64,000 nt of DNA, taken from the NCBI GenBank assembly GCA_022508505.1, contig JAFLVC010000010.1, positions 6,055 through 70,054 of the forward strand, written 5' to 3'. A program made the translations under genes and the position numbers. This stretch comes from Clostridiales bacterium. GTDB lineage: Bacteria; Bacillota; Clostridia; Christensenellales; Pumilibacteraceae. Each line of letters opens with the position of its first letter. Positions within the stretch are counted from its first letter, which is position 1. Below are positions 4,770 through 60,995 of the stretch, piece after piece. The notes below the pieces were generated by a model. It saw only the letters and a program-made list of their open reading frames with translations. It was not told the DNA's origin and ran no database searches.

Positions 4770-4778
4770 TGGTATAAT
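4770..4778 (+). promoter_or_regulatory. Extended -10 sigmaA promoter, 6 nt before the ruvX GTG (leaderless)
   Basis: TGgTATAAT at 4770-4778; no Shine-Dalgarno before GTG 4785. Confidence 0.6.
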
Positions 4779-4784
4779 CAAAAG

Positions 4785-5630
4785 GTGAAAACAGACGGCG
4801 TAAAGCTTCTCGGCGTCGATTTCGGGTTAAAGCGAGTGGGGCTCGCGGTGTGCGACAGCATGCACATCTTGGCTACGCCGCTCGAACCGATTGCGACAAA
4901 GTCGATGCGAATATCAATAGACCGCGTCGCCGATGTTGCGAAGTCGCAGAATGTCGGCGGAATAGTCGTAGGGCTTCCGCTCAACCTCGACGGCACGGAG
5001 TCTGTTCAGTCGGGCAGAGCGCGAGCGTTTGCCCGCAACCTCGAAAAGGTGACGGGGCTCATGGTCGAGCTTTTCGACGAGCGGCTGACTACGGTCGAGG
5101 CGGACGAGCTATTAAGAGAAGCGGGCGTAAAAAAAGCGTCCGACAGGGCAAAGCTCGTCGACAGCATGGCCGCCAAGGTTATTTTACAAAGCTATATTGA
5201 CAATAATAAACAAACGGAGAGTAATATGCAGGACAACAACGAAAAAGACGTCGAGGTTTTTGACGACGAAGAAGTGATCACGCTAACCGATGACGCTGGC
5301 AATCCCGTCGACTTCTACGAGGTGGCGTGCATCGAGTATAAGGGCGAGTTCTACGCACTTATGCAGCCCGTCGAGCCGATGGAAGGTCTCGGCGAGGACG
5401 AAGCGCTGATATTCAAGGTGCGCGAAGAGGACGAGGAAAACGACGTGTTCGAGCCGGTGTACGACGAGAGCGTCATGGAAGCGGTCTTTAACGAGTACCT
5501 CAACGCAATGGCGGAAGCGGGCGATTGCTGCGACTGCGAGGATTGTTGCGGACATCATCACGATCATGATTGCGACTGTGGCGACGACTGTGACTGCGGT
5601 TGCGACGACGACTGCGACTGCAACAAATAG
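4785..5630 (+). CDS. ruvX: RuvX/YqgF pre-16S rRNA nuclease fused in frame to a DUF1292 protein with a Cys/His/Asp-rich tail
   Basis: LLGVDFGLKRVGLAVCD, VVGLPLNLDG, FDERLTT, VDSMAAKVILQSYID (YqgF motifs), then without a stop 'VITLTDDAGNPVDFYEVACIEYKGEFYALMQP' (DUF1292); internal GGAG + ATG at 5226. Confidence 0.85.
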   Translation: MKTDGVKLLGVDFGLKRVGLAVCDSMHILATPLEPIATKSMRISIDRVADVAKSQNVGGIVVGLPLNLDGTESVQSGRARAFARNLEKVTGLMVELFDERLTTVEADELLREAGVKKASDRAKLVDSMAAKVILQSYIDNNKQTESNMQDNNEKDVEVFDDEEVITLTDDAGNPVDFYEVACIEYKGEFYALMQPVEPMEGLGEDEALIFKVREEDEENDVFEPVYDESVMEAVFNEYLNAMAEAGDCCDCEDCCGHHHDHDCDCGDDCDCGCDDDCDCNK

Positions 5631-5677
5631 TAGTTTAATGTAACGCAAGCTGTGCTCGGTTGCAGTAAAGCAAATGC

Positions 5678-5913
5678 GAGTGGCGTTTAGTAATTTACAA
5701 CTATGCGCCATTCGTCAGGCGTAACGCAAAACGAATAGCGGCAGTTATACACGACATAAATCCAATCTGCGATCGGTTGCGAAAAAGCATAGGTGAGTGG
5801 CGTTAAGCAATTTACAACGACACAAAGCAAATCCGAGTGGCGTTAAGCAATTTACAACGACACGCTACTATTCGGGTGTAACAAACAACGAATCACTAAA
5901 GTAAACACACGAC
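5678..5913 (+). repeat. Intergenic repeat family, locus A: two ~117-bp units, the second with an internal 40-bp-period duplication
   Basis: GAGTGGCGTTAAGCAATTTACAACGACAC identical at 5795-5823 and 5835-5863, degenerate copy at 5678; boxes (A/G)GG(C/T)GTAAC and ACACGAC at 5749-5755 and 5907-5913. Confidence 0.85.
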
Positions 5914-5960
5914 GATAAAAAATCTTGCATACTTCTTTTTGAAGAAGTATTGGAAAATGG

Positions 5961-5989
5961 TTGCGTTAAGGGTTTTGTTGTGTTATAAT
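5961..5989 (+). promoter_or_regulatory. sigmaA promoter of the rpsB-tsf operon
   Basis: TTGCGT-N17-TATAAT with extended TG. Confidence 0.75.
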
Positions 5990-5996
5990 AAGGTCA

Positions 5997-6075
5997 ATAC
6001 TCACCCGAGTATTTTTCTGTGCGCGGTAAATTTTTTCATGCCGCGTGTCGCTCGGGGCGGTAAAACGGAGATACC
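5997..6075 (+). promoter_or_regulatory. Structured rpsB 5' leader (probable S2 autoregulatory element)
   Basis: CCCGAG...CTCGGG outer stem and GCGCGGTA...TGCCGCGT inner stem between promoter and SD; position matches known rpsB leaders. Confidence 0.55.
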
Positions 6076-6921
6076 ATGGCAAATATCATCACGATGAAAC
6101 AGCTTCTCGAAGCGGGCGTTCATTTCGGTCATCCCACGCGCAAGTGGAACCCGAAAATGAAAAAGTACATCTACGTATCGCGCAACGACATCTACATCAT
6201 CAACCTCGAAAAGACGGTTGAGATGATAGACAAGGCGTACACGTTCGTTAAGGACGTAGCGGCGCAGGGCAAGTCGATACTCTTTGTCGGCACCAAGAAG
6301 CAGGCTCAGGAAGCGATCATGCAGGAAGCGCAAAAGTGCGGCATGTACTATGTCAATTCGCGCTGGCTGGGCGGCACGCTGACAAACTTCCAAACGATCA
6401 AGACGAGGATCGAGCGTCTCAACAAGCTCAACCTCATGGAAAAAATGAACGAGTTCGCGCTCCTTCCCAAAAAGGAAGTGTTGAAGCTCAAGGCAGAGCG
6501 CGATAAGCTCGAAGAAAACCTCGGCGGCATCAAGGACATGCGCACGCTTCCCGGTGCGCTGTTCGTCGTCGACCCCAAGAAAGAGCACAACGCCGTAATG
6601 GAAGCGCATAAGCTCAATATTCCCATCGTCGCTATCGTCGACACCAACTGCGATCCCGACGAGATTGACTATGTCATTCCCGGCAACGACGACGCTATCC
6701 GTGCAATCAAACTTATTGCCGGCGCAATGGCTGACGCCGTTATCGAGGCGCGCGAGGGCGAGGAAGGTCTTGCGGCTCGCCGCGCTGTGGAAGCGCAGAT
6801 GAAGGCCGAGGCGGAAGCGACAAAGCCTCCCGTCGAAGTGGTTGAAGAACCCGCTACGCAAGAGCAGCTCGAAAAGCTCGCGGAAACCGCAGGCGCGGAA
6901 GAAGCCCCCGTCGAGGCGTAA
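6076..6921 (+). CDS. rpsB: 30S ribosomal protein S2
   Basis: [40 protein letters not shown]. Confidence 0.98.
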
Positions 6922-7044
6922 TGGCAAATCTATACACGGCAACACGGTTTTGCCGTGCGTAAAAAGTGCCTAAATCGGCACGGATAATCGAAAAATCACG
7001 ATAATCAAAAATAATAAATAAGCAGATATGCAAGGAGTAACAAA

Positions 7045-7980: not shown

Positions 7981-7988
7981 GTAATCGT

Positions 7989-8025
7989 AAGTCGGCTTGC
8001 CGCAGTTGCGACGAGCCGATTTTCT
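7989..8025 (+). terminator. Probable intrinsic terminator after tsf
   Basis: AGTCGGCTTG...CGAGCCGATT stem followed by TTTCT. Confidence 0.55.
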
Positions 8026-8058
8026 ATATAACAGGGCTTTTCCCGAAGTAGGAGCAGT

Positions 8059-8754: not shown

Positions 8755-8784
8755 ATTGACAAAAATCAATAAGGAGAAATATTT

Positions 8785-12070: not shown

Positions 12071-13372
12071 TTGGAGTATTTTGCCTTTATAATTCTATCG
12101 ATCATGATACTCCTGCTCATGGTGCTAATCCATGAAGCGGGGCATTACACTACGGCAAAAATACTCGGCTTTACCATAGACGAATTTGCTATAGGCTTCG
12201 GACCGAAGCTCTTTTCTCGCCGCCGCAAAAACGGCGAGCTCTTTTCGCTTAGGGCGCTGCCGCTCGGCGGATTTTGCGCATTCTACGGCGAGGACGAGGA
12301 CGAGAACAAGCTTGATGATAATAAGTCCGAAGTAAGCGCCGACCAATCGCTTGACACTGTAGACAAAGAAAAAGATAAATCGGAAAGCGGCGAGAAAGCG
12401 TCCGACGACGACCTTTTGTCGTACGTCATGCAAAATGTCGAAAAAGAGCACGGAAGCGCCGATACGGAAAAGCGGGCGGAAACTGTTTCGCATTCCGGAA
12501 GTGTTGCTGCCGTCGCGACTGCGCCGACAAAGCCGCGACTCGGAAAGGACGGAAAGCCTGCGCTGCCGTTTAACGCTCAAAAACCGTGGAAGCGGCTGAT
12601 AGTTCTTATCGGCGGCGTGCTTTTCAATTTTTTGTCGGCGTTTATTTTTTCGCTCATTTATATAGGCGTCGTCGGGTTTCCCGTGCCCGAAATAACCGAG
12701 GTTTACACATACGTCAATCCCGAAACGCAGGCGGTAACTAAGTACAACGATTTCGAGGTTGGCGACAAGATAATCGCAATCAACGGCATTGAGATTACAG
12801 TCATGCGGTCTTACAACGACATTATCGAAGAAGTCGGCAACAAGGATACAATTAAGTTTAAGGTGCTTCGCGGCGGCAAAAAGGTTGACGTCGTCGCAGA
12901 ACGCAAGCAGATTACGCCGAGCGACGACAAGCAAAAACCGTATCTCGGGTTTGGGTACGTTCAAAAGTCGTGCTTTATCGGCAACAATGCGGGAAACGCC
13001 TTTACCTATTGCGTGCCGTACACCTTCAAACTGTCTTGGTCGATACTCGGTGCGTTCGGCGATATACTGACAGGGCGGCAGTCTATAACGAGCATGACGG
13101 GCCCCGTCGGCTCGATAAGCCTCATGGCGCAGGTGTCGGTCGCTGATTGGCGCAACATCTTGATTCTTCTTCCGCTCCTTGCGAGCAATCTCGCTATTTT
13201 CAATCTTTTGCCGTTTCCGGCGCTCGACGGCTCGCGCATGGTATTTACCGCAATAGAGTGGGTGCGAAAAAAGCCCATAAACCGAAAAGTCGAAGGCATG
13301 ATCCATTTTGTGGGCATGGTTGTACTGCTGTTGTTCGTTTTAGTGGTTGACATTTTATCTTTCGCGCTGTAA
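12071..13372 (+). CDS. rseP: RseP/RasP-type M50 intramembrane zinc protease with PDZ domain
   Basis: HEAGH, FAIGFGP, LPLGGF, NLLPFPALDGSR; position dxr-rseP-ispG. Confidence 0.95.
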   Translation: MEYFAFIILSIMILLLMVLIHEAGHYTTAKILGFTIDEFAIGFGPKLFSRRRKNGELFSLRALPLGGFCAFYGEDEDENKLDDNKSEVSADQSLDTVDKEKDKSESGEKASDDDLLSYVMQNVEKEHGSADTEKRAETVSHSGSVAAVATAPTKPRLGKDGKPALPFNAQKPWKRLIVLIGGVLFNFLSAFIFSLIYIGVVGFPVPEITEVYTYVNPETQAVTKYNDFEVGDKIIAINGIEITVMRSYNDIIEEVGNKDTIKFKVLRGGKKVDVVAERKQITPSDDKQKPYLGFGYVQKSCFIGNNAGNAFTYCVPYTFKLSWSILGAFGDILTGRQSITSMTGPVGSISLMAQVSVADWRNILILLPLLASNLAIFNLLPFPALDGSRMVFTAIEWVRKKPINRKVEGMIHFVGMVVLLLFVLVVDILSFAL

Positions 13373-13375
13373 AAT
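13347..13375 (+). promoter_or_regulatory. sigmaA promoter inside the rseP 3' end, 6 nt before the ispG GTG (leaderless)
   Basis: TTGACA(13347-52)-N17-TAAAAT(13370-75); no SD before GTG 13382. Confidence 0.65.
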
Positions 13376-13381
13376 ATACGC

Positions 13382-14431
13382 GTGAGCAAAGAGATTAAGA
13401 TTAAAAAGATTGCAATCGGCGGCGGCAACAGAATTGCCGTTCAGTCGATGACTAATACCGATACGCTCGACGCGGACGCTACCTTGGAGCAGCTTAAAAG
13501 ACTCGAATCGGCGGGCTGTGATATTGCGCGTATTGCCGTGTCGAGCAGTGCCGAGATAGAATCGTGCAAGAAAATCGTCGGAAAGACGAGCATGCCGCTC
13601 GTCGCGGACATTCAGTTCGACTATCGGCTTGCCGTCGCGGCATGCGAGATAGGGTTTGACAAAATACGCTTCAATCCCGGAAATATCGGGAGCGAAACAA
13701 ACGTAAAGCGCGTCGTCGACGCTTGCAAGGCGCACAATGTGCCCATTCGCGTTGGGGTGAATACGGGCTCGCTCGAAAAGGAGTTTAAAGCGCTTCCCGC
13801 GAGCTCTGCGCTTGTCGAGAGTGCGTTAAAGCACGTCAAGCTTCTCGAAAAGTACGGTTTTTGCGACACGGTCATATCGGTAAAGTCGTCCGACGTCAAG
13901 ACGACGGTCGACGCGTATAGACTGCTCTCTGAAAAGGTCGACTATCCGTTACATATAGGCGTAACCGAGAGCGGGAGCGACCTGCGCGGAACGGTGCGCT
14001 CTGCGATAGGCATAGGCTCTCTTCTCGTCGACGGCATAGGCGATACCGTGCGCGTTTCGCTGTCCGGAGATCCCGTAAAAGAGATCGAGGCGGCGCGGCT
14101 TATTTTGCAGGAGTGCGGCGTCGATAAAAACTACTGCGAGATAATCTCGTGCCCGACTTGCTCAAGGTGTAAGTACGACCTAAAATCGATTGTCGACGAG
14201 CTAAAAGAAGCGACAAATGACATCACGACGCACGTCAAGCTCGCCGTCATGGGCTGCGTGGTAAACGGCCCGGGCGAGGCGGAAGATGCGGACTTCGGCG
14301 TTGCGGGCGGCGGAAGCGACAAGGTCGCGCTGTTCGTTCACGGCAAGGTGATAAAGACGATAACGCAAGCGGAAATAGTGCCCGAGCTGCTTCGACTCGT
14401 GCATGACAAAATCGGAAGCGAAACAAAATGA
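13382..14431 (+). CDS. ispG: 4-hydroxy-3-methylbut-2-en-1-yl diphosphate synthase
   Basis: IAVQSMTNT, PLVADIQFD, RFNPGNIG, GIGDTVRVSL, SCPTCSRC, VMGCVVNGPGEA. Confidence 0.97.
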   Translation: MSKEIKIKKIAIGGGNRIAVQSMTNTDTLDADATLEQLKRLESAGCDIARIAVSSSAEIESCKKIVGKTSMPLVADIQFDYRLAVAACEIGFDKIRFNPGNIGSETNVKRVVDACKAHNVPIRVGVNTGSLEKEFKALPASSALVESALKHVKLLEKYGFCDTVISVKSSDVKTTVDAYRLLSEKVDYPLHIGVTESGSDLRGTVRSAIGIGSLLVDGIGDTVRVSLSGDPVKEIEAARLILQECGVDKNYCEIISCPTCSRCKYDLKSIVDELKEATNDITTHVKLAVMGCVVNGPGEAEDADFGVAGGGSDKVALFVHGKVIKTITQAEIVPELLRLVHDKIGSETK

Positions 14432-27116: not shown

Positions 27117-27141
27117 AAGGACTCTTCGGAGTCCTTTTTTT
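27117..27141 (+). terminator. Intrinsic terminator after efp
   Basis: AAGGACTC-TTCG-GAGTCCTT (cUUCGg loop) plus T run. Confidence 0.9.
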
Positions 27142-27155: not shown

Positions 27156-27184
27156 GCATAATCGCAGGCGCAAACCCATAAATA
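27156..27184 (+). promoter_or_regulatory. sigmaE-like promoter of the spoIIIA operon, 7 nt before ATG
   Basis: GCATAAT-N14-CATAAATA versus B. subtilis sigmaE consensus (G/T)HATAXX-N14-CATAcahT. Confidence 0.6.
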
Positions 27185-27191
27185 TAACGGT

Positions 27192-28082
27192 ATGGAAGAG
27201 TTTTTCAAGCTTATACCGGACAAGCTTGCCGAGGTTATCATATCAAGGCTCGCGTTTGACAAGATAAACGAGTTGCGCATAAGAAACGCACGCCCTGTAG
27301 TGATAGGCTATGACGGAGTGTATTATTATCTCGGCAAGACGGGCCTAATGAAGGACGCCGCCGCCGCTTTCGTATCGTCAGACAACGAGGCGGAAAGGAT
27401 TGTCATGCGCGCGTGCGAGCGGTCGCTGTACACCGTTACCGACACTTTGCGGCGCGGGTACGTCTCTGTTTCGGGCGGGATAAGGATAGGCGTTTGCGGA
27501 AACGTCGTCGTAGGCAGCGGCGGGACGCTCGCGCTGAAAAACTTTTCTTCGGTCAATATAAGACTGCCGCACCAAGTGAAGGGGTGCGCCGCAGGCGTGT
27601 ACGCAAGGCTCGCCTCGGCGGGGCTTTGCAACGTGCTTTTGATTTCTCCGCCCGGCGCAGGCAAGACGACGGTGCTGCGCGACCTGTGCAGGCTTATTTC
27701 GGATCGCGGCGCCAACGTACTGCTGTGCGACGAAAGATACGAGATAGCGTCCTGTCGGGACGGCGTGGCCACGCTCGACGTCGGGGCGTGTACCGACGTT
27801 ATGAGCGGCATGGATAAGCGCGAGGTGTTTGAAATAGCGATAGCTTCAATGCGACCTGACGTCATTGTTACGGACGAGCTGTTCGGCAGGGATATAGATG
27901 CGCTGAGTAAAGCTGTGCACTGCGGCGTTTATGTAATAGCCACGGTGCATGCTCGAGACGTTGCCGACTTCAAAGCGAAGGCAGAGTACGCGGAAATAAT
28001 ATCGAACAATATTTTTTCGCAGTACGTCGAGATTGCCGACAGCCCCACGAGAAGCGTTAGAGTTATAGGAGCGACGGCATGA
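27192..28082 (+). CDS. spoIIIAA: Stage III sporulation protein AA (ATPase)
   Basis: ELRIR, GYVSVSGGIRIGVCG, SSVNIR, PPGAGKTTVLRDL, DERYEIA, MRPDVIVTDE. Confidence 0.95.
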   Translation: MEEFFKLIPDKLAEVIISRLAFDKINELRIRNARPVVIGYDGVYYYLGKTGLMKDAAAAFVSSDNEAERIVMRACERSLYTVTDTLRRGYVSVSGGIRIGVCGNVVVGSGGTLALKNFSSVNIRLPHQVKGCAAGVYARLASAGLCNVLLISPPGAGKTTVLRDLCRLISDRGANVLLCDERYEIASCRDGVATLDVGACTDVMSGMDKREVFEIAIASMRPDVIVTDELFGRDIDALSKAVHCGVYVIATVHARDVADFKAKAEYAEIISNNIFSQYVEIADSPTRSVRVIGATA

Positions 28083-35923: not shown

Positions 35924-37738
35924 TTGGAAAATCATGACATCAGAACGCCGCAAGACTTGAAGCGGCTTAAAATCACCGAACTCGACTGCGTAGCGCGTGA
36001 CATTCGCGAGCGTATACTTTCCGTCGTGGGCGAAAACGGCGGGCATTTGTCGTCCAACCTCGGCGCGGTCGAGCTTACGGTTGCGCTGCATTACGTTTTC
36101 GATTGCCCGACGGACAAGATTGTTTTTGATGTAGGACACCAGTCGTATGCGCATAAAATACTTACAGGTCGCGCCGACAGATTCGCTCAGCTACGGAAAA
36201 ACGGCGGTATATCGGGGTTCCCGAAACCCTCCGAAAGCGAATACGATGCATTTTCCACAGGTCATGCGTCCACCTCTCTTTCTGTTGCGCTCGGCTTTGC
36301 TCAAGCGGCAAAGAGCCGCGGCGAAAGCTGTAATACGGTGGCTGTCATAGGCGACGGCGCGCTTACGGGCGGGCTCGCATACGAGGCGCTCAACGCGATA
36401 GGCAGCGAACAGCTCCCCGTCATTATCGTGTTAAACGACAACGAAATGTCTATAAGTAAAAACGTCGGTGCGATGAGTAAGTACTTGACGCGCCTTCGCG
36501 TCAGCAAAAAGTACGTGCGCATCAAAAGCGAGATAAAGTGCGCCGTATCCGTCATTCCGCTTTTCGGCGAGGGCGCAATTCGCCTCATGGAACGCGGCAA
36601 AAAGTTTTTGAAAAAGATTATACTTTCCAATAAGATGTTCGAGGAGATGGGCATAAGCTATTACGGTCCGTTCGACGGGCATAATATTCGCGAGCTCGTA
36701 CAGGTATTTTCGCAGTTAAAGGACAAGGACGGTCCGATAATCGTGCATGTGTTGACAGATAAGGGCCGAGGCGACGAGAGCGCTACGACCGATCCCGAGC
36801 ATTCGCACGGCGTGTCGGCGTCGACGGGCGGAAAGAGCAAAAAGTTTTCAGACGTGCTCGGTTCGTTCTTGATGAGCGCGGCGGAAAGCGACAGCCGCGT
36901 TATCGGAGTAACTGCGGCTATGGCTATCGGAACGGGGTTGGAGGAATTTTCCAAGAAGTACCCGGATAGGTTTAAGGACGTCGGCATTGCGGAAGAACAC
37001 GCTGTTACATACAGCGCGGCGCTTGCCGCTGGTGGAATGAAACCGTACTTTGCGGTGTATTCTACATTTTTGCAGCGCGGTTTCGATCAAGTTCTTCACG
37101 ACGTGTGCATAGGGAATTACCCTGTCACATTGTGCGTGGACCGCGCAGGCGCTGTCGGCTCGGACGGGGTGACGCATCAAGGCGTATTCGATTTGAGCTA
37201 TCTGTCGCTCATGCCAAACATGACGATAATGTGTCCCACAGACGGACGCGAACTTAACGATATGCTACAGTTTTCGCTCGGCTACAGTGCGCCGATTGCG
37301 ATACGGTACCCTAAGTCGTACAAGGCAGAGCGCGAGCACGAGCCCGTTGAGTACGGAAAGTGGGAAGTTATAAAGCAGGGCAAAAGCAAATCGGTTGCGC
37401 TTTGCGTAGGACCGCGCGCGCTCGACGCCGCGCTTTCCGCCGCAGAAAAAACAGATATAACCGTAGTAAACTGCAGATTTGTAAAGCCGCTCGATAACGA
37501 GTTGTTGGACAGCGTAAACAAGCGTGGATATAAAATAGTAACCATTGAGGACAACGTCAGGCGCGGCGGCTTCGGCGAGAGCGTACTGTCGTATCTAAAC
37601 GCAAAAAAGTTGAATGCCGCAATATCCATTCTCGCGCATGACGACAAGTTCATAGACGACCGAGACGTAGATTCGACGCTCAATGCGTCGGGGTTGACGA
37701 GCGAAAATTTGATTTTGACGCTGAAAAGCCTTGAATAA
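35924..37738 (+). CDS. dxs: 1-deoxy-D-xylulose-5-phosphate synthase
   Basis: GGHLSSNLG, FDVGHQSYAHK, GDGALTGG, LNDNEMSI, DVGIAEEHAV, DRAG.VGSDGVTHQG. Confidence 0.97.
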   Translation: MENHDIRTPQDLKRLKITELDCVARDIRERILSVVGENGGHLSSNLGAVELTVALHYVFDCPTDKIVFDVGHQSYAHKILTGRADRFAQLRKNGGISGFPKPSESEYDAFSTGHASTSLSVALGFAQAAKSRGESCNTVAVIGDGALTGGLAYEALNAIGSEQLPVIIVLNDNEMSISKNVGAMSKYLTRLRVSKKYVRIKSEIKCAVSVIPLFGEGAIRLMERGKKFLKKIILSNKMFEEMGISYYGPFDGHNIRELVQVFSQLKDKDGPIIVHVLTDKGRGDESATTDPEHSHGVSASTGGKSKKFSDVLGSFLMSAAESDSRVIGVTAAMAIGTGLEEFSKKYPDRFKDVGIAEEHAVTYSAALAAGGMKPYFAVYSTFLQRGFDQVLHDVCIGNYPVTLCVDRAGAVGSDGVTHQGVFDLSYLSLMPNMTIMCPTDGRELNDMLQFSLGYSAPIAIRYPKSYKAEREHEPVEYGKWEVIKQGKSKSVALCVGPRALDAALSAAEKTDITVVNCRFVKPLDNELLDSVNKRGYKIVTIEDNVRRGGFGESVLSYLNAKKLNAAISILAHDDKFIDDRDVDSTLNASGLTSENLILTLKSLE

Positions 37739-37759
37739 TTTTGTCGATTGAGGTATAAT
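37731..37759 (+). promoter_or_regulatory. sigmaA promoter overlapping the dxs end, 8 nt before the nadK ATG (probably leaderless)
   Basis: TTGAAT-N17-TATAAT; no SD before ATG 37768. Confidence 0.65.
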
Positions 37760-37767
37760 TTTCGTAT

Positions 37768-38544
37768 ATGAAGATAGGCGTGTACACAAATAAAGATAAA
37801 GATCCGCATGGCGAAACCCGTCGTGCGCTCGAGCTTGCCGCAAAAAAGCACGGCGCGTCCGTGTCCGACTACAAGGACGGCGAGTATTTTGACTTTATCG
37901 TGTCTATCGGCGGCGACGGAACTATACTTCGCATTGCAAAGGAAAGTGCTAAATCCGGCATTCCCATTCTCGGTGTAAACCGCGGAACGGTCGGGTTTTT
38001 GACTGAAATAGATCCCGACGGTCTGGACGAGGCGATAGGTAAGCTCAAGAGTCGCGAATACGTATTGGAGCGGCGCGCACTTCTTGACGTATCTTTACGC
38101 GGCGAGCATTATTACGCGCTCAACGACGCGGTGGTAATGCGCACAAACGGCGGAAGAGTAATCGCCATGGAAATATCAGTAAACGGCGAGCACGCGTTGT
38201 CAATCACTTGCGACGGTTACATAGCGAGCACGCCCACGGGCTCTACCGCATATTCGCTTTCCGCGGGCGGCGCTATAATCGCGCCGAGCGCCGCCGTAAT
38301 AGCGCTCACTCCGGTAAATCCTCACGCCCTTCACGCGCGCTCCATGGTAGTAAACTCGGGCGCCGACGTTTCTATGAAGTACTGCAATGGCGAAGGCGCT
38401 TCGCTGTTCATCGACGGAAACACCGTGCTTCGGCTCGACGAGGGCGAGGTAGTGTCGGTTACAGGCTGGGACATGAGCGCCATGTTCGTTAGGTTAAAAC
38501 AAAAGAGCTTTTATTCGCGACTTACGGACAAGCTGAATATTTGA
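37768..38544 (+). CDS. nadK: NAD kinase
   Basis: IGGDGTIL, GVNRGTVGFL, ALND, DGYIASTPTGSTAYSLSAGG. Confidence 0.96.
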   Translation: MKIGVYTNKDKDPHGETRRALELAAKKHGASVSDYKDGEYFDFIVSIGGDGTILRIAKESAKSGIPILGVNRGTVGFLTEIDPDGLDEAIGKLKSREYVLERRALLDVSLRGEHYYALNDAVVMRTNGGRVIAMEISVNGEHALSITCDGYIASTPTGSTAYSLSAGGAIIAPSAAVIALTPVNPHALHARSMVVNSGADVSMKYCNGEGASLFIDGNTVLRLDEGEVVSVTGWDMSAMFVRLKQKSFYSRLTDKLNI

Positions 38545-40303: not shown

Positions 40304-40332
40304 GTATATATTTTTACACTGCGCAAAAACTA
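40304..40332 (+). promoter_or_regulatory. sigmaF/sigmaG-like promoter of spoIVB, 7 nt before ATG; possible Spo0A box (TTCGACA, 40290-96) just upstream
   Basis: GTATA-N14-GCAAAAACTA versus sigmaF consensus GYWTA-N15-GgnrAnAnTw; no SD. Confidence 0.5.
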
Positions 40333-40339
40333 TTCGGGT

Positions 40340-41347
40340 ATGAAAAATTTGCGCGTATGTTTACTTATTGTTTTCGCCATGCTGCTGTGCGTGGCGTTTG
40401 TTCCGATTGAGTATCCTTTTCAAGTCAGGACTGCGTCTGCCGTCGCTTCGGAGCGAGTTTACATCGGCGGTTTCCCGATAGGAATTACGCTCGACGTAGG
40501 CGGACTCCTAGTCGACGGCGTTACGGGCGTCGAGACCGAGTTTGGCACGGCGCGTATCGACGGCTTCAAAAAAGGCGACATAATTAAGAAAATAAACGGG
40601 AAGGACGTGAGATCTGTGGATGACGTTCAGCTCGCGCTCGGGGAAGATGTCGCAACCGTCGAGCTAATTAGAGACGGCAAAACAATCACAATCGAAGTGC
40701 GGCCTTTGATAGAGGCGTACAGCGAGCGTCCGCGGCTCGGCATAAGGATAAAGGACAAGATATACGGCGTCGGCACTGTAACGTTTGTCAGGCAGAACGG
40801 CGAGTATGCCGCGCTCGGGCACGAGATATACGACGCCGATACGGACACGCATATTCCGTTCGACTCGGGTAAAATTTACGGCTGTAAAATTCTCGGAATC
40901 AAAAAGGGCGTAAAAGGCGAGGCGGGCGCACTTTTGGGCTCGATTGTCGAAGGGGACGAGCGCGGCACGATAAGCCGAAACGACAAGTTCGGAATTGCCG
41001 GAACGTATACAGAGAACCGCCCCGACGACGATATAGTGGAAGTCGCAGACCGCGCCGAGGTCAGACCTGGCCACGCGAAGATAAGAACGACGATTGACGA
41101 CGAACCGAGAATGTTTGATATCGAGATAATCAAAGCGTCGCGGTGGCCGGGCAGAAACGAAAAAAGCCTTGTTTTTCGCGTAACGGACAAAAAGCTCATC
41201 GGCTTGACGGGTGGAGTAGTGCGCGGCATGAGCGGATCTCCGATAATACAAAACGGCAAGCTCGTCGGCGCGGTTACTCACGTATTTATCAACGATCCGA
41301 CGCGCGGCTACGGCATTTTGATCGACAATATGTTAAATTCGGATTAA
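40340..41347 (+). CDS. spoIVB: SpoIVB serine peptidase (PDZ + S55 domain)
   Basis: GVGTVTF, ALGHEI, GGVVRGMSGSPIIQNGKLVGAVTHVFINDPTRGYG. Confidence 0.95.
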   Translation: MKNLRVCLLIVFAMLLCVAFVPIEYPFQVRTASAVASERVYIGGFPIGITLDVGGLLVDGVTGVETEFGTARIDGFKKGDIIKKINGKDVRSVDDVQLALGEDVATVELIRDGKTITIEVRPLIEAYSERPRLGIRIKDKIYGVGTVTFVRQNGEYAALGHEIYDADTDTHIPFDSGKIYGCKILGIKKGVKGEAGALLGSIVEGDERGTISRNDKFGIAGTYTENRPDDDIVEVADRAEVRPGHAKIRTTIDDEPRMFDIEIIKASRWPGRNEKSLVFRVTDKKLIGLTGGVVRGMSGSPIIQNGKLVGAVTHVFINDPTRGYGILIDNMLNSD

Positions 41348-44066: not shown

Positions 44067-44095
44067 GAATAACCGAAAAGTACGTCGCATAGATT
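44067..44095 (+). promoter_or_regulatory. sigmaE-like promoter, 6 nt before the ATG of the spoIIM-like gene (leaderless)
   Basis: GAATAAC-N14-CATAGATT, matching the sigmaE consensus. Confidence 0.65.
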
Positions 44096-44101
44096 TACGA
44101 T

Positions 44102-44722
44102 ATGCGACGTACTTTTGTTATTTCCGATTGGTTTTATAGGCTCACGCATGCCGTAAAGCGCAACCGCGCGGCGGTTGTTATTTATGCGCTCGTTTTTCTG
44201 CTGTTTTTAATAATAGGAATAGCGGTGGGAGTCAATATAGGCGACAAGACCGCATACATCATGCGGAACAGGTCGCCTGTATTCGCATATTTACGAGGAA
44301 GTTCGGGGTTTGCCGCCTTCTTTTTCCTCGAACTACTGTCGACGAGTGTGTACTGTCTGTTTGCGCTCGGCCTGTTTTTCAAACGCCCGCTGTCATTTTT
44401 GTCGATAGCGCCGTGCATGTACAAATCGTACTCGCTCGGTATGCAGGTGAGCGTAATAGTAATATTGTTTTCGGCGCCGTCGCTTCCCATGCTGTTTGTG
44501 TTTTTCGTACCGATAAGCATAATAGAGATAGCTATTTTGTGCATGCTGTCGTTTAAGTGCATAGCATTTGCGGCGCTTAACGGCAGGTGTTCGCCGTCTA
44601 AGCCGGATATTAAGGCGTACTTTTACAGCGCCACTCCGTATTTTATCGCAATAGCCGTTTGTACGTTTATCAAGGTTATGACTGTCGCTCTTTTCGGCTC
44701 GGCGCTTATCGGCGTCATTTGA
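44102..44722 (+). CDS. spoIIM: Stage II sporulation protein M-like membrane protein
   Basis: 206-aa multi-TM protein; KSYSLG...FFVP pattern resembles SpoIIM; sigmaE-like promoter; lies upstream of dacF. Confidence 0.6.
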   Translation: MRRTFVISDWFYRLTHAVKRNRAAVVIYALVFLLFLIIGIAVGVNIGDKTAYIMRNRSPVFAYLRGSSGFAAFFFLELLSTSVYCLFALGLFFKRPLSFLSIAPCMYKSYSLGMQVSVIVILFSAPSLPMLFVFFVPISIIEIAILCMLSFKCIAFAALNGRCSPSKPDIKAYFYSATPYFIAIAVCTFIKVMTVALFGSALIGVI

Positions 44723-45966: not shown

Positions 45967-45996
45967 TTGACCTAAGGCGAATAAGTGTGGTAGAAT
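45967..45996 (+). promoter_or_regulatory. sigmaA promoter 6 nt before the rpe ATG (leaderless)
   Basis: TTGACC-N18-TAGAAT with extended TG; no SD. Confidence 0.65.
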
Positions 45997-46002
45997 ACGA
46001 GT

Positions 46003-46656
46003 ATGAAACGCACACTTGTAGCGCCGTCTATATTGAGCGGCAACTTCGCCGACATGGGCAGTGAAGTTAAGAACATGAAAGATATCGGCGCCGACTGGAT
46101 TCACGTCGACGTCATGGACGGGGTATTCGTTCCCAATCTTACCTTCGGGTTTAAGATGATTCAGGACCTCCGGCCGCTTTCCGAGCTGTTTTTCGACGTT
46201 CACCTTATGATCGTCGAGCCGCGCCGCTACGTCGAAAGGTTTGTAAAGGCGGGAGCCGACCTCGTGTCCTTTCACGTCGAGGCAGAAAAGGAGATAGACG
46301 CCACAATCGAGGGAATCAAGGCGTGCGGGGCTAAGGCGGGGCTCGTAATAAACCCCGACACCCCGACGGACAAGTTCGCGCCGTATATAGACAAGCTTGA
46401 CCTCGTGCTCGTGATGTCTGTGTTTCCCGGATTCGGCGGGCAGAAGTTTATTGACGGATCGCTCGAGCGGATTGCAAAGGTAAAGGAAATGCGAGACAGG
46501 CTTGCGCCGTCATGCCTTATCGAGGTGGACGGCGGCGTAACTACCGCTAACGCCGAAAGCATAGCAAAAGCTGGCGCCGACGTCATTGTCGCCGGCAATG
46601 CGGTGTTCGGCGCGACGGACAGGAAGCGGGCAGTAGAAGCTATTCGCGGAAAATAA
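46003..46656 (+). CDS. rpe: Ribulose-phosphate 3-epimerase
   Basis: VAPSILS, HVDVMDGVFVPN, DVHLMI, MSVFPGFGGQKF, IEVDGG. Confidence 0.98.
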   Translation: MKRTLVAPSILSGNFADMGSEVKNMKDIGADWIHVDVMDGVFVPNLTFGFKMIQDLRPLSELFFDVHLMIVEPRRYVERFVKAGADLVSFHVEAEKEIDATIEGIKACGAKAGLVINPDTPTDKFAPYIDKLDLVLVMSVFPGFGGQKFIDGSLERIAKVKEMRDRLAPSCLIEVDGGVTTANAESIAKAGADVIVAGNAVFGATDRKRAVEAIRGK

Positions 46657-54960: not shown

Positions 54961-54993
54961 ATTATGCCGCAAGTAGAAGCGGGAAGAGTCAAT

Positions 54994-55728
54994 ATGGAAG
55001 TAATAACGTCGATATCAAACGCAATCGTAAAGCGAATCAATAAGCTGAAGCAAAAAAAATACCGCGACGAAGCGGGCGAGTTTATAGTCGAGGGACTCAG
55101 AAACGTTCGCGACACCGCGGAAGCTACTCCGCAATCGGTTGTCGCCGTAATTCTCGGTGAGAGCTCGTATAAAAAGTACGGCGCCGAGTTTTCGGCGTTT
55201 TCGGTGTCGGTGGTTTCGGACGCAATCGTCGAAAAGCTGTCGGACGCCGAGAGCAGTCAGGGCGTCATTTCGATAAACAGGAAAAAGCAGTCCGAGTTTC
55301 CGTCGGGAAGATGCGTGCTTCTCGACAGAGTGCGCGATCCTGGGAACGTAGGGACGATTTTGCGCACGGCGGTTGCTGCGGGGTATGACGTCGTGCTCGA
55401 CGGCTGCTGCGATATTTATTCGCCCAAGGTGGTTAGAAGCGGCATGTCGGCTGTGTTGAAGTGCCGCATAAGTGAGGATATTTCCGTTGCCGAACTTAAA
55501 GCGGCGGGCTACGAGATTATAGTTGCCGACATGAACGGCGAGGATATTTTCGACGCGGCAAAGCCGATCGGCAAGTACTGCATAGTGATAGGCAACGAGG
55601 CGGACGGCGTGAGCGACGAGATAGCAAACGCCGCCGACCGCATTATCGCCATTCCGCAGTCAGGCGTCGAGTCATTAAACGCCGCCGTCGCCGCAGGCGT
55701 GATGATGTTCGTGCTCGGCAGGAAGTAA
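54994..55728 (+). CDS. TrmH/SpoU-family RNA 2'-O-methyltransferase
   Basis: ITSISNAIVK, FIVEG, DPGNVGTILRTA, IGNEADGVS, ESLNAAVAAG. Confidence 0.93.
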   Translation: MEVITSISNAIVKRINKLKQKKYRDEAGEFIVEGLRNVRDTAEATPQSVVAVILGESSYKKYGAEFSAFSVSVVSDAIVEKLSDAESSQGVISINRKKQSEFPSGRCVLLDRVRDPGNVGTILRTAVAAGYDVVLDGCCDIYSPKVVRSGMSAVLKCRISEDISVAELKAAGYEIIVADMNGEDIFDAAKPIGKYCIVIGNEADGVSDEIANAADRIIAIPQSGVESLNAAVAAGVMMFVLGRK

Positions 55729-56037: not shown

Positions 56038-56066
56038 TTGACAAATAATACTATATATAGTACAAT
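56038..56066 (+). promoter_or_regulatory. sigmaA promoter of yebC-lysA
   Basis: TTGACA-N17-TACAAT. Confidence 0.75.
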
Positions 56067-56095
56067 TGAAATAATCTGAAAACACGGAGTAGTTT

Positions 56096-56839: not shown

Positions 56840-56847
56840 TCCTCGAA

Positions 56848-58137: not shown

Positions 58138-58146
58138 GAGGCATTG

Positions 58147-58905
58147 ATGCTGTTTGCATTTCGTAATGCAGGTTCTTCGACCGATTATATAATTTTTACG
58201 CTGTTTTTGTTGATTGCGGTGTGTGTTGCGCTCGTTTTGCACGAGGTTGCGCACGGGCTTGTCGCAAAATGGAACGGCGACTATACTGCGCAGTACGAAG
58301 GTCGGCTGACGCTCAATCCTATTAAGCACTTCGACCCGATCGGACTTGTCATGATGCTGACTGTCGGATTCGGCTACGCAAAGCCCGTTCCCGTAAATCC
58401 GTACAACTTCAGGCATTACCGCAAGGGGCTTTTTACCGTCGCAATAGCGGGAATTTGCATGAACTTTATTCTCGCGTTTCTTTCCGCGTTGTTTTTCAAT
58501 TTGATGTTCCTCGGATATATCAATACCGGCGCGGAAGCATTTTGGTATTTCATGCAGTTCTTTTCTATCTCGATGCAGATAAATATTGCGTTTGCGTTTT
58601 TCAATCTTTTGCCCGTATTTCCGCTCGACGGGTTTCGCATTGTGGAAACCTTTACCCACCGCGGCAACAAGTTCTGCGCGTTCATGCGCACCAACGGTCA
58701 GTATATTCTGTGGGGATTGGTAGGTCTCAGCCTGATTGTCGGAATGGCGGGAAGATACGTCGCGCTGCCGAGCTGGTTCGAGTATGTCAATGTACTCGGA
58801 TTGTATATAAACTTCTTTGTGAGCAAGGTGGAATGGCTGTTTGTCAACTTTTGGGCGCTTATGATGCCGCCCGTCCGAGAGCTACTGTGGTTGGTGGGGA
58901 TGTAG
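58147..58905 (+). CDS. Site-2 protease (M50 family)
   Basis: HEVAH, GRLTLNPIKHFDPIG, GYAKPVPVNP, FNLLPVFPLDG; upstream of scpAB. Confidence 0.92.
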   Translation: MLFAFRNAGSSTDYIIFTLFLLIAVCVALVLHEVAHGLVAKWNGDYTAQYEGRLTLNPIKHFDPIGLVMMLTVGFGYAKPVPVNPYNFRHYRKGLFTVAIAGICMNFILAFLSALFFNLMFLGYINTGAEAFWYFMQFFSISMQINIAFAFFNLLPVFPLDGFRIVETFTHRGNKFCAFMRTNGQYILWGLVGLSLIVGMAGRYVALPSWFEYVNVLGLYINFFVSKVEWLFVNFWALMMPPVRELLWLVGM

Positions 58906-58906
58906 T

Positions 58907-59689
58907 ATGAAGCCTATAAAAGGACTCAAACCCGAAGATGAAAATAACAGCTACCACGTAGTTCTCAAAAACTACGACGGTCCGCTCGATCTGCTGCTCG
59001 ATATGGTTAGGCGCGCAAAAATCCGTATCGAGGATATATTCATTTCGGACATAACCGAGCAGTACCTCGCGGCAATGGACCAGCTCGAAGAGCTCGACAT
59101 GGATCAAGCCGCAGACTTTATCGAGGTTGCGGCGACCCTTCTCGAAATCAAGTCGCGCGCGCTTTTGCCTCGTCCCGAGGTGATAGAAGCGCCCGAGGAC
59201 GACCCCAAGAAGGAATTTATCCAAAGGCTTGACGAGTACAGGCTGTTCAAGGAAGCCGCCGACAAAATGCGCGAGCAGGAAAAGGTCAATATGCACTACC
59301 GCGCTCCCGACGACAGCGTAGGTCAGCCCCGACTCGTGTTGAAGGATATGACGACGGAAGGTCTTGTCAACGCGCTAAAGAGGATGTTCGACAAGATAGG
59401 CGCGCGCCAAAAGGTGTTCAAAACCCGCAAAATCGACCTCGATCCGTTTACCGTCGTTCAGAAAATAGCGTACATACGCGACCGCGTTCGCAATGTCGAA
59501 AGGGTTACGTTCGACGAATTATTCGACGAGGATTTTACTGTAAACGAAGTCATAACGACTTTTCTCGCGCTTTTAGAGCTGCTCAAAGCTCAAGAAGTGA
59601 GCGCGGAGCAGAACGGAATTTTTGAAACCATAACCATTATCAGAAGAAATATTACCGACAGGAGCTTGGGTGGTGACGATGGAAATTGA
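58907..59689 (+). CDS. scpA: Segregation and condensation protein A
   Basis: YDGPLDLLL, ITEQYL, AATLLEIKSR.LLP, TTFLALLEL. Confidence 0.95.
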   Translation: MKPIKGLKPEDENNSYHVVLKNYDGPLDLLLDMVRRAKIRIEDIFISDITEQYLAAMDQLEELDMDQAADFIEVAATLLEIKSRALLPRPEVIEAPEDDPKKEFIQRLDEYRLFKEAADKMREQEKVNMHYRAPDDSVGQPRLVLKDMTTEGLVNALKRMFDKIGARQKVFKTRKIDLDPFTVVQKIAYIRDRVRNVERVTFDELFDEDFTVNEVITTFLALLELLKAQEVSAEQNGIFETITIIRRNITDRSLGGDDGN

Positions 59690-60353
59690 GCTTATTGACG
59701 ACATACTCGAATCGCTTTTGTTCGTTTCGGGCGACGGGCTGAAAATCAGCGATATTTGCGAGCTTTTGGAGCTTCAAAAGAGCGAGGTAACGGGCGCGGT
59801 GAAGCGGCTTCAAAAGAAGTTCGGCGGAAAGAGCGGCATACATCTCATCACGTATAACGGCAAGATACAGTTCGCTTCCAATCCCGAGTATTCGGACGTG
59901 ATTGCTTGCGTGCTTAATCCGATAAAGGAAAAAGCGCTGTCTACTCCCGCCATGGAAACGCTGTCCATCATCGCGTACCGTCAGCCGGTCACGCGTCTCG
60001 ACGTGGAGCATATCCGCGGCGTGAACTGCGACTATGCGCTTCAAGCCCTTTTAAAGAACAACCTTATCGAGATAGTCGGGCGCAAGGAATCGCTCGGAAA
60101 GCCTTTGCTTTTCGGCACGACCGAAAACTTTTTGAAGCGGTTCGGCATAGAGGACATAACGCAGCTGCCCGATAGGGACGCGTTGCTCGAAAAAATACGC
60201 GATATAGAAGAAAGCACGCCCGCGCCGGACGAGGAACAGCTTTATAATTACGCTCAGGTTGACGAGAACGGCACGCCCGACTTTTTGCAGGGCGAAGAGC
60301 TTTTGGAAATCGACGGCTCGGACGCCGAGGCCGCCGCAACCGAAACCGACTGA
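59670..60353 (+). CDS. scpB: Segregation and condensation protein B
   Basis: LESLLFVSG, AMETLSIIAYRQPVTR..IRGVN, GKPLLFGTT.NFL..FGI. Confidence 0.95.
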   Translation: MVTMEIELIDDILESLLFVSGDGLKISDICELLELQKSEVTGAVKRLQKKFGGKSGIHLITYNGKIQFASNPEYSDVIACVLNPIKEKALSTPAMETLSIIAYRQPVTRLDVEHIRGVNCDYALQALLKNNLIEIVGRKESLGKPLLFGTTENFLKRFGIEDITQLPDRDALLEKIRDIEESTPAPDEEQLYNYAQVDENGTPDFLQGEELLEIDGSDAEAAATETD

Positions 60354-60395
60354 CGTTCCAAAATATTTTGCCATATAACGGTAAACACTACGTAT

Positions 60396-60995
60396 ATGTT
60401 GTACTTGGTGCTTACCGTTTTTTTATTGCATCTTTCGGTCGTACCGTTGGTGATAAGTATAAAAATCGACATAGACAGCGACGTTCCCGTCGGAAAAATC
60501 ACGGTCAAGCTGTTTTTTATACCCGTATTTGTCAAAAAATTGCATTTTGAGGGCTTTCAAGACGCGGTTAACGGCACTCCTATTCAAAATGAAGAGAAAG
60601 ACGAGCAAGAAGAGCACAAGCAAAAGAAGCCGTCGAAGTTCAAGAAAGCAATTAAGGACTTCCTTGTAAAAGTGGCTGTCCGAATAGCAAAGCGCATCAG
60701 AGTGCGGGAAGCGGACTTGCAATCGACAATCGGAACGGGCGACGCGGCGGCGACAGCTGTTTCGGTTTCGTCGGCGCTAATACTATACTGTCAGGCTTGC
60801 GCGTTTTTAGGACTCGCGCCGCAGGACGGCGCTATTAGACCCGATTACGAGCGTGCGAAGCTGTTTGTCAAGTTTTACGGCATAATTTCATTGTGTTTTG
60901 CGGATATTATATATGCCGTATTGTCGCAAATACTGTCGAAATTTGCGGCAGGCGGCAAAGGAGAGGTGCATGGACAGCATATTGTTACCGAGTGA
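60396..60995 (+). CDS. ytfI: DUF2953 / YtfI-like protein
   Basis: N-terminal TM, IGTGDAAATA motif, IRPDY; directly upstream of ytfJ/gerW. Confidence 0.75.
   Translation: MLYLVLTVFLLHLSVVPLVISIKIDIDSDVPVGKITVKLFFIPVFVKKLHFEGFQDAVNGTPIQNEEKDEQEEHKQKKPSKFKKAIKDFLVKVAVRIAKRIRVREADLQSTIGTGDAAATAVSVSSALILYCQACAFLGLAPQDGAIRPDYERAKLFVKFYGIISLCFADIIYAVLSQILSKFAAGGKGEVHGQHIVTE

Follow-up and report, generated by a model that had tools for sequence, protein, structure and literature searches.

Can genes of an endospore-forming bacterium, including genes of its sporulation programme, begin so close behind their promoters that no room is left for an SD sequence? The question is raised by a 64,000-nucleotide stretch of DNA (the window) from an uncultured spore-forming gut bacterium of a Christensenellales-type genus. 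The original prediction listed eight genes in the window with a -10 box ending 5 to 8 nt before the start codon, and proposed that the lineage may use leaderless initiation widely, its developmental programme included.

Promoter-start arrangements in the window

All eight promoter-start arrangements were found, on inspection of the sequence, at the gaps originally given for them, and at none of the eight sites is the SD position occupied by GGAG, GAGG or AGGA. Four are of sigmaA type (ruvX, ispG, nadK, rpe) and four resemble promoters of sporulation sigma factors, with boxes of sigmaE type at spoIIIAA and the 'spoIIM-like' gene and of sigmaF/G (forespore) type at spoIVB and the 'ytfI-like' gene:

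4770-4787 (+): ruvX, TGgTATAAT (4770-4778), N6, GTG 4785; CDS 4785-5630 (+), a RuvX-DUF1292 fusion (Pfam)
13347-13384 (+): ispG, TTGACA (13347-13352), 17-nt spacer, TAAAAT (13370-13375), N6, GTG 13382; CDS 13382-14431 (+), IspG equivalog by NCBIfam, aligned from residue 2
27156-27194 (+): spoIIIAA, -35 gCATAAT (27156-27162), 14-nt spacer, -10 CATAAATA (27177-27184), 7-nt gap TAACGGT, ATG 27192; CDS 27192-28082 (+), SpoIIIAA confirmed by Pfam
37731-37770 (+): nadK, TTGAAT-17-TATAAT (37731-37759), N8, ATG 37768; CDS 37768-38544 (+), NAD kinase confirmed by Pfam
40304-40342 (+): spoIVB, -35 GTATA (40304-40308), 17-nt spacer, -10 AAAACTA (40326-40332), N7, ATG 40340; CDS 40340-41347 (+), SpoIVB confirmed by Pfam
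44067-44104 (+): 'spoIIM-like' gene, GAATAA (44067-44072), 15-nt spacer, CATAGATT (44088-44095), N6, ATG 44102; CDS 44102-44722 (+), membrane protein matching no family
45967-46005 (+): rpe, TTGACC-18-TGgTAGAAT (45967-45996), N6, ATG 46003; CDS 46003-46656 (+), Rpe confirmed by Pfam
60384-60398 (+): 'ytfI-like' gene, -10 AACACTA (60384-60390, within ACGGTAAACACTA), N5, ATG 60396; CDS 60396-60995 (+), DUF2953-like membrane protein by weak match

The eight genes were compared in six congeners. At 50-80% protein identity the layouts are held in same-genus genomes, with boxes and gap conserved and spacers divergent, and in more distant relatives the promoter is followed by an SD leader. Among the sigmaA-type sites, the ruvX layout (TGTGTTATAAT-like, including TTACAAT and TTATCAT variants, then N6-GTG) and that of rpe are each kept in five of the six congeners. 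The promoters of rpe (45967-45996) and nadK (37731-37759) were also recovered by an independent scan. The nadK gap is 8 nt in the source genome and 6 nt in four congeners; of the remaining two, one carries a pair of ATGs, 4 and 7 nt past the box, and the other an SD-like leader. For ispG the layout is kept in all six, and its -10 box TAAAAT contains the rseP stop codon TAA, 9 nt before the ispG GTG, while the -35 TTGACA doubles as the V-D-I codons of RseP. The promoter thus lies inside the 3' coding sequence of rseP, so its conservation is confounded.

The spoIIIAA promoter directly follows the efp terminator (27117-27136). Its CATAAATATAACGGT-ATG junction shows almost no variation across about 23 genomes of the genus, in which the protein is 53-78% identical, whereas other families carry a GAGG or AAGGAGG leader instead. 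The spoIVB layout is kept in 6/6 congeners. A start could be identified at 78 related spoIVB loci: 38 of them carry an SD, many with the same sigmaF/G box about 20 nt upstream, and at 23 the box lies 5 or 8 nt ahead of the ATG without an SD. Since both genes are leadered with an SD elsewhere, and the spoIVB box then often stands upstream of the leader, the box behaves as a promoter and not as a translation signal.

The other two sporulation-type sites are kept as well. In all six congeners the boxes and spacing of the 'spoIIM-like' gene are found, as is ACGGyAAACACTA-N5-ATG/GTG in front of the 'ytfI-like' gene. Their names fared less well. The product of 44102-44722 and its six orthologs match no Pfam or NCBIfam family, even at E values up to 1, and the SpoIIM profile PF01944 has no match anywhere in the genome, which leaves the spoIIM-like name unsupported; the gene could still encode a very divergent SpoIIM analogue. 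The name ytfI is at most tentative: the protein matches DUF2953 (PF11167) weakly, at 16.5 bits (E = 0.0095) against a Pfam cut-off of 22 bits, and no NCBIfam family.

Offset of -10 boxes across the genome

The whole genome (1.89 Mb, 1,464 genes) was searched with gene starts from a simple in-house ORF and dicodon caller rather than a standard gene-calling tool. TAnnnT boxes matching TATAAT in at least five of six positions stand exactly 6 nt before an ATG or GTG in 85 cases, against 14.5±3.5 in dinucleotide shuffles (maximum 24) and a mean of 21.5 at other offsets (maximum 37; Poisson p ~4e-25). This enrichment, four- to sixfold over shuffles and other offsets, agrees with the expectation that -10-like motifs at the leaderless offset should outnumber those in shuffled controls. 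Without any annotation, TATAAT-N6-ATG is counted 56 times versus about 20 at other gaps. Ahead of the called genes, promoters of a strict sigmaA definition occur 75 times with a gap of 6, 20 times with a gap of 7 and about 8-10 times at neighbouring gaps. Behind strong gap-6 promoters an unfiltered tally of starts gives 63 ATG, 10 GTG and 2 TTG, the last being background.

A stricter promoter rule, which accepted ATG and GTG starts only, called 89 of the 1,464 genes leaderless (~6%), 72 of them with a gap of 6 and 17 with a gap of 7; within that limit 75 start with ATG and 14 with GTG. Among SD-led starts TTG has a share of 6%. The promoter pattern of the called genes is TTGACa-17-TRTGnTATAAT. 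The called sites also share an A-rich upstream region; neither this nor the TRTG extension of the -10 box was used for selection. Nor was the base at -1, which is a pyrimidine at 89% of called sites versus 64% of SD-led genes (p = 6e-6); +1 is a purine. In its positions, its offset statistics and its conservation, this promoter-start architecture is a real feature of the genome.

Called sites are found almost only at genes that open a transcription unit. They account for 74 of 739 operon-first genes (~10%, about one operon in ten) and for 39 of 258 genes with a divergent upstream neighbour (15%), versus 2 of 548 genes that follow a co-oriented gene within 25 nt (0.4%). In the SD position all 89 lack GGAG, GAGG and AGGA. 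Other genes show an SD motif strongly peaked 5-9 nt before the start, making the genome mainly SD-led, and the 16S tail is canonical; the ribosome-binding machinery is therefore normal and the called genes are genuine exceptions.

Outside the window, further sigmaE-type boxes adjoin the starts of yabP (ACATATT-N14-CATACTTT; congeners carry CATACAAT) and an SpmA-like gene, and sigmaF/G-type boxes those of a DUF421 gene (GCATA-N17-CATACTA) and a GerA-family gene (GTATA-N17-CACAATA). The yabP layout is kept in 22/24 genus genomes and that of the DUF421 gene in 25/25. The genes for sigA, sigE, sigF, sigG and sigK are all present. In B. subtilis the sigmaE consensus is approximately ATATT-N14-CATACAnT, and that of sigmaG/F is approximately GnATA-N17/18-CAtnnTA. 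Judged against the first, spoIIIAA and yabP have sigmaE-type -35 and -10 boxes at correct spacing, and, judged against the second, spoIVB and the DUF421 and GerA-family genes have sigmaG/F-type boxes at correct spacing. The sigma factor given for each sporulation-type promoter is a putative one, suggested by resemblance to the B. subtilis consensus. At gaps 10-12 there are 15 composite sigmaE/K boxes (about 5 expected) and at gap 5 there are 4 composite sigmaG boxes (about 0.7 expected), the genome-wide signal of the sporulation-type boxes being weak because the numbers are small.

Probable leaderless transcription and its alternatives

We consider it likely that transcription of these genes, from sigmaA, sigmaE-type and sigmaF/G-type promoters, yields mRNAs with no leader or almost none. 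The transcription start site and the mechanism of translation at the called genes are those that we infer from the architecture. RNA polymerase holoenzyme would bind a promoter with its -10 box ending 6 nt (sigmaA) or 5-8 nt (sporulation sigma factors) ahead of the start codon. With the box so close, transcription should begin at, or within 1-2 bases of, the A or G of the ATG or GTG; as forespore-type gaps vary from 5 to 8 nt, some transcripts may carry leaders of 1-3 nt. Such a transcript would have no room for an SD, and its 5'-terminal start codon would be recognised by a ribosome carrying initiator tRNA. A 70S or 30S-IF2-fMet-tRNA route has been described for leaderless mRNAs of other bacteria. 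In this genus the leaderless mode would work beside ordinary SD-led initiation.

A different reading is that the boxes are not functional promoters, that transcription starts upstream, and that the A/T-rich stretch acts as an SD-independent translation enhancer or simply prevents folding around the start codon. It is known that translation without an SD can be supported by A/U-rich initiation regions free of structure, and some genes, ispG and nadK among them, lie close behind a co-oriented gene, where read-through is possible. However, an enhancer would not be expected to show full -35, TRTG and -10 elements at exact spacing or an offset peak one nucleotide wide, and a -1 pyrimidine with a +1 purine is characteristic of points where transcription starts. 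The enrichment of sites at divergent and terminator-preceded genes, and the many SD-led spoIVB orthologs with the sigmaF/G box ahead of their SD leader, also speak against this reading, which we regard as improbable.

For closely spaced genes such as ispG, translation could instead depend on termination-reinitiation coupling to rseP, the boxes being by-products of the C-terminal codons and stop of rseP. The overlap of TTGACA with V-D-I of RseP, and of the -10 box with the rseP TAA, could alone explain their conservation. Nevertheless, TTGACA-17-TAAAAT-6-GTG is a perfect match and has the geometry of the other ~70 gap-6 sites, and both mechanisms can coexist. We give coupling very little weight even at ispG; with only two tightly spaced genes showing the pattern, it cannot explain the class.

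Least probable of all is that the start codons are mis-assigned, the true ones lying up- or downstream with a normal SD and the abutment being an annotation artefact: the starts do come from an in-house caller and 7 of the 89 called genes have an alternative start with an SD of at least 5 nt within about 100 nt, but the other 82 have none, the peak appears also in annotation-free counts, N-termini are kept from residue 1 in congeners (eight window genes, yabP and the DUF421 gene), an in-frame start further upstream is usually absent at conserved starts, and the alignments to Pfam and NCBIfam families begin at residues 2-7.

Leaderless transcription from adjoining promoters, the reading we prefer, bears on the broader part of the original prediction in two ways. 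The proposed wide use in the lineage holds in so far as the gap-6 peak, the promoter marks and their conservation are concerned, but it extends to only ~6% of genes and 10-15% of operon-first genes. The proposed reach into the developmental programme finds good agreement, with the layout present at spoIIIAA and spoIVB in the window and at yabP and the SpmA-like, DUF421 and GerA-family genes outside it.

Leaderless starts in other Firmicutes

Leaderless starts are rare in model relatives. In C. difficile leaderless mRNAs are reported for 15 genes (PMC7438776), B. methanolicus has no truly leaderless mRNA and B. licheniformis 2.1% as cited in the same paper (PMC4342826), and in C. phytofermentans the figure is 4% of intergenic start sites, with the ribosome-binding site retained (PMC5171806). 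The present genome shares with model endospore formers the sigma factor set and the promoter consensus types; whereas very few leaderless cases have been mapped there by experiment, here about 90 SD-less genes, several core sporulation genes among them, are predicted from sequence.

Higher frequencies are reported elsewhere in the phylum. Zheng et al. 2011 predicted 2.4-16.6% of genes to be leaderless in 56 of 209 Firmicutes genomes, in the clades Lactococcus/Streptococcus, Oenococcus/Leuconostoc and Mycoplasma (PMC3160421). The TAtAAT -10 box with TG extension is common to those genomes and ours, and the 6% found here falls inside their range; those clades form no endospores, in contrast to the endospore-forming Clostridia order considered here, in which sporulation sigma factors would be involved.

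The genome may also be mildly "group C"-like in the sense of GeneMarkS-2, which assigned to that group 36 of 1,064 Firmicutes (PMC6028130) and, in a set of 4,930 species-level genome bins from the human gut, 717 (PMC8153819). As in group C, a Pribnow-type -10 box stands 6-8 nt before operon-first starts without an SD, and SD-led genes occur alongside. The differences are in extent, about 10-15% of operon-first genes by our own strict criterion (not that of GeneMarkS-2) against 25-50% reported, and in sequence, a low-GC Gram-positive TTGACa-17-TRTGnTATAAT instead of the bare TAnnnT of high-GC phyla.

Leaderless initiation being a known mode, the new part, and a mildly novel one, is its apparent use by sporulation sigma factors. 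That the 5' leader was lost repeatedly in an endospore-forming Clostridia order, for compartment-specific sigmaE (mother cell) and sigmaF/G (forespore) genes, is a speculative extension that we think rather unlikely. If leaderless mRNAs were translated differently from SD-led ones in the forespore or mother cell, for which a changed IF2/IF3 balance or 70S availability is a possible cause, sporulation would be controlled at a further, so far unrecognised level, that of translation.

Promoter boxes and gene identities in the window

The eight SD-less arrangements of the original prediction, in which a start codon closely follows a promoter -10 box, were all found in the window sequence. The assembly (1.89 Mb in 25 contigs, 52-53% GC, with the window at C2:6055-70054) was analyzed with gene calls from a simple caller of our own, based on ORFs and dicodons (1,471 genes, 88% of the genome covered), and analyses were repeated free of annotation wherever possible. 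Three giant ORFs stand out in this 1.9 Mb genome, at C22:36588-51674(+) (~15.1 kb), at C1:253430-266848(+) (~13.4 kb) and on the minus strand of C10 (~12.5 kb). Pfam confirms RuvX (in an in-frame fusion with DUF1292), NAD kinase, Rpe, SpoIIIAA and SpoIVB, and NCBIfam confirms IspG and RuvX. An independent consensus scanner recovers the nadK promoter at 37731-37759 (10/12 consensus matches) and the rpe promoter, with TG, at 45967-45996, and places a terminator at 27117-27136, immediately before the spoIIIAA boxes. The ruvX-DUF1292 gene (4785-5630, DUF1292 being YrzB-like) encodes a single 281-aa protein; the tblastn match is continuous over both domains in two of six same-genus genomes (G014 and G003) and split in two, one per part, in the other four.

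Two of the gene names proposed for these sites lack support. The name ytfI is backed by a DUF2953 match of only E=0.0095. As for the spoIIM-like gene at 44102, we rejected its assignment as SpoIIM, as no Pfam or NCBIfam model matches the protein or six of its orthologs and a whole-genome search for PF01944 (SpoIIM) gave no match anywhere. The same genome otherwise has spoIIIA, spoIVB, yabP, gerA and sigE/F/G/K. The gene at 44102-44722, which follows a sigmaE-type promoter, encodes a conserved polytopic membrane protein of 206 aa that could fill the role of SpoIIM as a divergent substitute.

The comparison collection includes 24 or more congeneric species, and syntenic 60 kb DNA was compared from six congeners (protein identity 50-80%). 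The boxes and their distance to the start are kept across the six while the spacers diverge; the N-terminus is conserved from residue 1 in every case, and an upstream in-frame start is usually absent.

Promoter-to-start layouts in six congeners (N followed by a number directly before the start codon gives the nucleotides between -10 box and start)
ruvX: TGTGTTATAAT-like box (variants TTACAAT, TTATCAT), N6, GTG; five of six
ispG: layout conserved; six of six
nadK: TTGAATAA-17-TATAAT-N6-ATG; four of six, one further congener having tandem ATGs 4 and 7 nt past the box and one an SD-like leader
rpe: layout conserved; five of six
Gene at 44102-44722 (named spoIIM-like): GAATAA-N15-CATAnnnn-N6-ATG; six of six
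spoIVB: GTATA-N15-(C)GGCAAAAACTA-N7-ATG; six of six
Gene named ytfI-like: ACGGyAAACACTA-N5; six of six

In nadK the gap is 8 nt in the source genome versus 6 in the congeners. A closer inspection of ispG revealed that its promoter (13347-13384) overlaps the 3′ end of rseP: TTGACA encodes V-D-I of RseP, the -10 box TAAAAT includes the rseP stop codon, and the GTG lies 9 nt past that stop. Reinitiation coupled to rseP is a live alternative to a leaderless start for this gene, and the conservation of the layout in all six congeners is confounded here, because the boxes are at the same time rseP codons and stop.

Abutment of promoters and starts across the genome

With a box defined as TAnnnT having at least five of six matches to TATAAT, and with all candidate starts of the called genes considered, the maximum falls precisely 6 nt before the start codon (47 versus ~10 at coding-best starts). 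Over all plausible ATG/GTG starts there are 85 boxes at gap 6, compared to 14.5±3.5 in dinucleotide shuffles and to a mean of 21.5 and a maximum of 37 at other offsets (Poisson p ~4e-25), so that -10-like motifs at this distance, far from being no commoner than in shuffled controls, greatly exceed both backgrounds. Scored by a composite of -10, -35 and TG, promoters number 75 at gap 6 and 20 at gap 7, where the local background is 8-10. Free of annotation, TATAAT-N6-ATG occurs 56 times versus ~20 at other gaps, and strong promoters are followed by ATG 96 times at gap 6 versus ~42 elsewhere; no gap-6 peak follows TATAAT in the annotation-free count when CTG, ATC or AAG takes the place of ATG. 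The abutment of promoters and starts exceeds chance, and the underlying observation is confirmed.

In the logo of 72 gap-6 sites, TTGACa follows an A-rich stretch and is separated by 17 nt from TRTGnTATAAT; the logo reads as a textbook sigmaA promoter of low-GC Gram-positive bacteria. Pyrimidines occupy position -1, which played no part in site selection, in 89% of the sites, compared to 64% for SD-led genes (p=6e-6). Together with the purine at +1, this is the combination that transcription start sites are known to prefer. Start codons at gap 6 behind strong promoters, with no codon filter, are ATG (63), GTG (10) and TTG (2, at background), TTG making up 6% of SD-led starts; the 89 genes called under a stricter promoter rule, which admitted ATG and GTG only, divide into 75 and 14, respectively.

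These leaderless-type sites stand at the heads of transcription units. Sites are called at 39 of 258 genes whose upstream neighbour is divergent, at 20 of the 310 that have over 120 nt upstream, and at just 2 of the 548 whose upstream gap is at most 25 nt; among operon-first genes, by proxy, 74/739 (10%) are called. In the rest of the genome the SD motifs GGAG, GAGG and AGGA are sharply peaked 5-9 nt before starts, and the 16S 3′ end is GGATCACCTCCTTT. Since SD sequences are used normally by the other genes, this is apparently a mixed system rather than a lineage without SD recognition. We also noticed a window gene (54964-55728, 254 aa) with neither SD nor recognisable promoter box, in which a terminator-like hairpin ends ~9 nt before the ATG; its start may be mis-set, as a second in-frame Met is found at codon 11.

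Sporulation promoters and leadered orthologs

The genome encodes SigE, SigK, SigF and SigG. Promoters are assigned here, provisionally, as sigmaE/K-type or sigmaF/G-type by resemblance to the B. subtilis consensus sequences. Single-box profiles (CATA, CA...TA, A[AC]TA) were either not significant or confounded by gap-6 sigmaA boxes of the form TATAAT(A)/TATACT(A), and a strict forespore motif, G[CT]AAA[AC]ACTA, derived from spoIVB and the ytfI-named gene, was too narrow and matched beside the starts of those two genes only. Informative patterns were confined to composites of -35 and -10, with small numbers: ATA-N15-17-CATA has 15 sites at gaps 10-12 versus ~5 expected, and GnRTA-N16-18-mAHWHTA has 4 at gap 5 versus ~0.7. 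These excesses beside starts are small but real, and the genes found by them include the following.

Genes with a composite sporulation-type pattern beside the start
YabP gene
Gene of an SpmA-like 'Gate' protein
Gene of a DUF421/YetF protein: GCATA-N17-CATACTA-N8-ATG
Gene of a GerA-family germination protein: GTATA-N17-CACAATA-N5-ATG
Gene of a VanW-domain protein
C25:24714 (+), gene of an acidic protein of 81 aa, family-less and without SD: GAATA-N17-CATACTA-N5-ATG (protein sequence MDDRLEEEHDFK...)

The last of these has a perfect sigmaG-type box, and its product is a candidate for a new forespore protein. The yabP layout (gCATACAAT/gCATAGTAT-N6-ATG) is kept in 22 of 24 genus genomes and that of the DUF421 gene (GAATA-N17-CATACTA-N8 or N5-ATG) in 25 of 25. 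Nine strict sigmaG-type intergenic boxes lie within 30 nt of a start: three abut it and six are at 12-27 nt, five of the latter with an SD, including dacF in the window. About 8 of ~32 loose sigmaE/K-type boxes abut a start. The gaps of the forespore type range from 5 to 8 nt, so some of the mRNAs may carry leaders of 1-3 nt, still too short for an SD.

The spoIIIAA arrangement aCATAtt-N14-CCATAAATATAACGGT-ATG is common to ~23 same-genus genomes, and GAGG or AAGGAGG leaders take its place in other families of the order. Its -10-to-ATG stretch TATAACGGT (window 27177-27194; compared loci L081-L104) hardly varies among ~23 species, although the identity of their proteins is no more than 53-78%, and many sigmaA leaderless sites likewise end in ...CGGT/CGGC before ATG, which points to selection acting on the discriminator and the start-site region. 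Among 78 related spoIVB loci with an identifiable start, 38 have an SD, many of them with a GTATA...CAAACTA-type box ~20 nt upstream; 23 are without SD, with a distance between box and ATG of 5 nt in 19 and 8 nt in 4, and 17 are unclassified, several of which look like the box-abutting SD-less ones. The same promoter would occur with and without a leader in orthologs, and in our view such pairs argue more strongly than anything else for a box that is a promoter and a leader that was lost. Taken at the sequence and comparative level, the data support leaderless initiation in this lineage, its developmental programme included.

Extent in other genomes and significance

Among spore formers whose transcripts have been mapped by experiment, leaderless mRNAs are few or absent: C. 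difficile has 15 (PMC7438776) and B. methanolicus none (PMC4342826), the latter paper citing a share of 2.1% for B. licheniformis, and in C. phytofermentans ~4% of intergenic start sites qualify, yet keep a ribosome-binding site (PMC5171806). Computational surveys already allow for leaderless Firmicutes like this one. Zheng et al. put the leaderless share at 2.4-16.6% of genes for 56 of the 209 Firmicutes genomes surveyed, mostly Lactobacillales and Mycoplasma (PMC3160421), and GeneMarkS-2 assigned its leaderless group C to 36 of 1,064 Firmicutes (PMC6028130) and to 717 of 4,930 human-gut species bins (PMC8153819). Our literature search found no paper treating leaderless genes in Christensenellales and none, by title or abstract, on leaderless transcription from endospore sigma factors. 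The source lineage appears to be a further lineage-level case of a known phenomenon, of moderate extent, for which two features would be mildly novel, namely the sigmaE-type and sigmaF/G-type sporulation promoters driving leaderless genes and the persistence of the same orthologs within the order in both forms, with and without a leader.

Leaderless initiation would reach beyond Actinobacteria, Deinococcus and a few lactic acid bacteria to an endospore-forming lineage and its alternative sigma factors. A gene caller that expects an SD will set the start wrongly for ~6% of genes in the genus, and probably also in related uncultured gut Clostridia. The fixed promoter-to-ATG geometry provides high-confidence predicted promoters for sigmaA, sigmaE and sigmaG in an uncultured group, and the leadered and leaderless pairs of spoIVB and spoIIIAA are natural material on leader loss and its effect on expression.

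As a cross-genome yardstick, the count of TATAATN6ATG was divided by that of the reversed pattern. The ratio is 7.5 in the source genome versus a median of 1.46 in 145 Clostridia genomes, only two of which reach at least 5; it is a crude measure, with a median of only 2.0 (range 1.4-8.8) in the congeners, because composition affects the reversed-pattern control. Genomes of 0.9-1.0 Mb from another family of the same order give 5.5-19. In sister-family genomes of this size, G084, G115, G142 and G169, TATAAT-N6-ATG shows an even stronger excess (28 versus 1, 39 versus 2, 49 versus 7 and 68 versus 12, respectively). Within the class Clostridia, leaderless use may have a scattered distribution; a few genomes of unrelated families are also enriched, among them G180 (38 versus 3) and G162 (38 versus 5).
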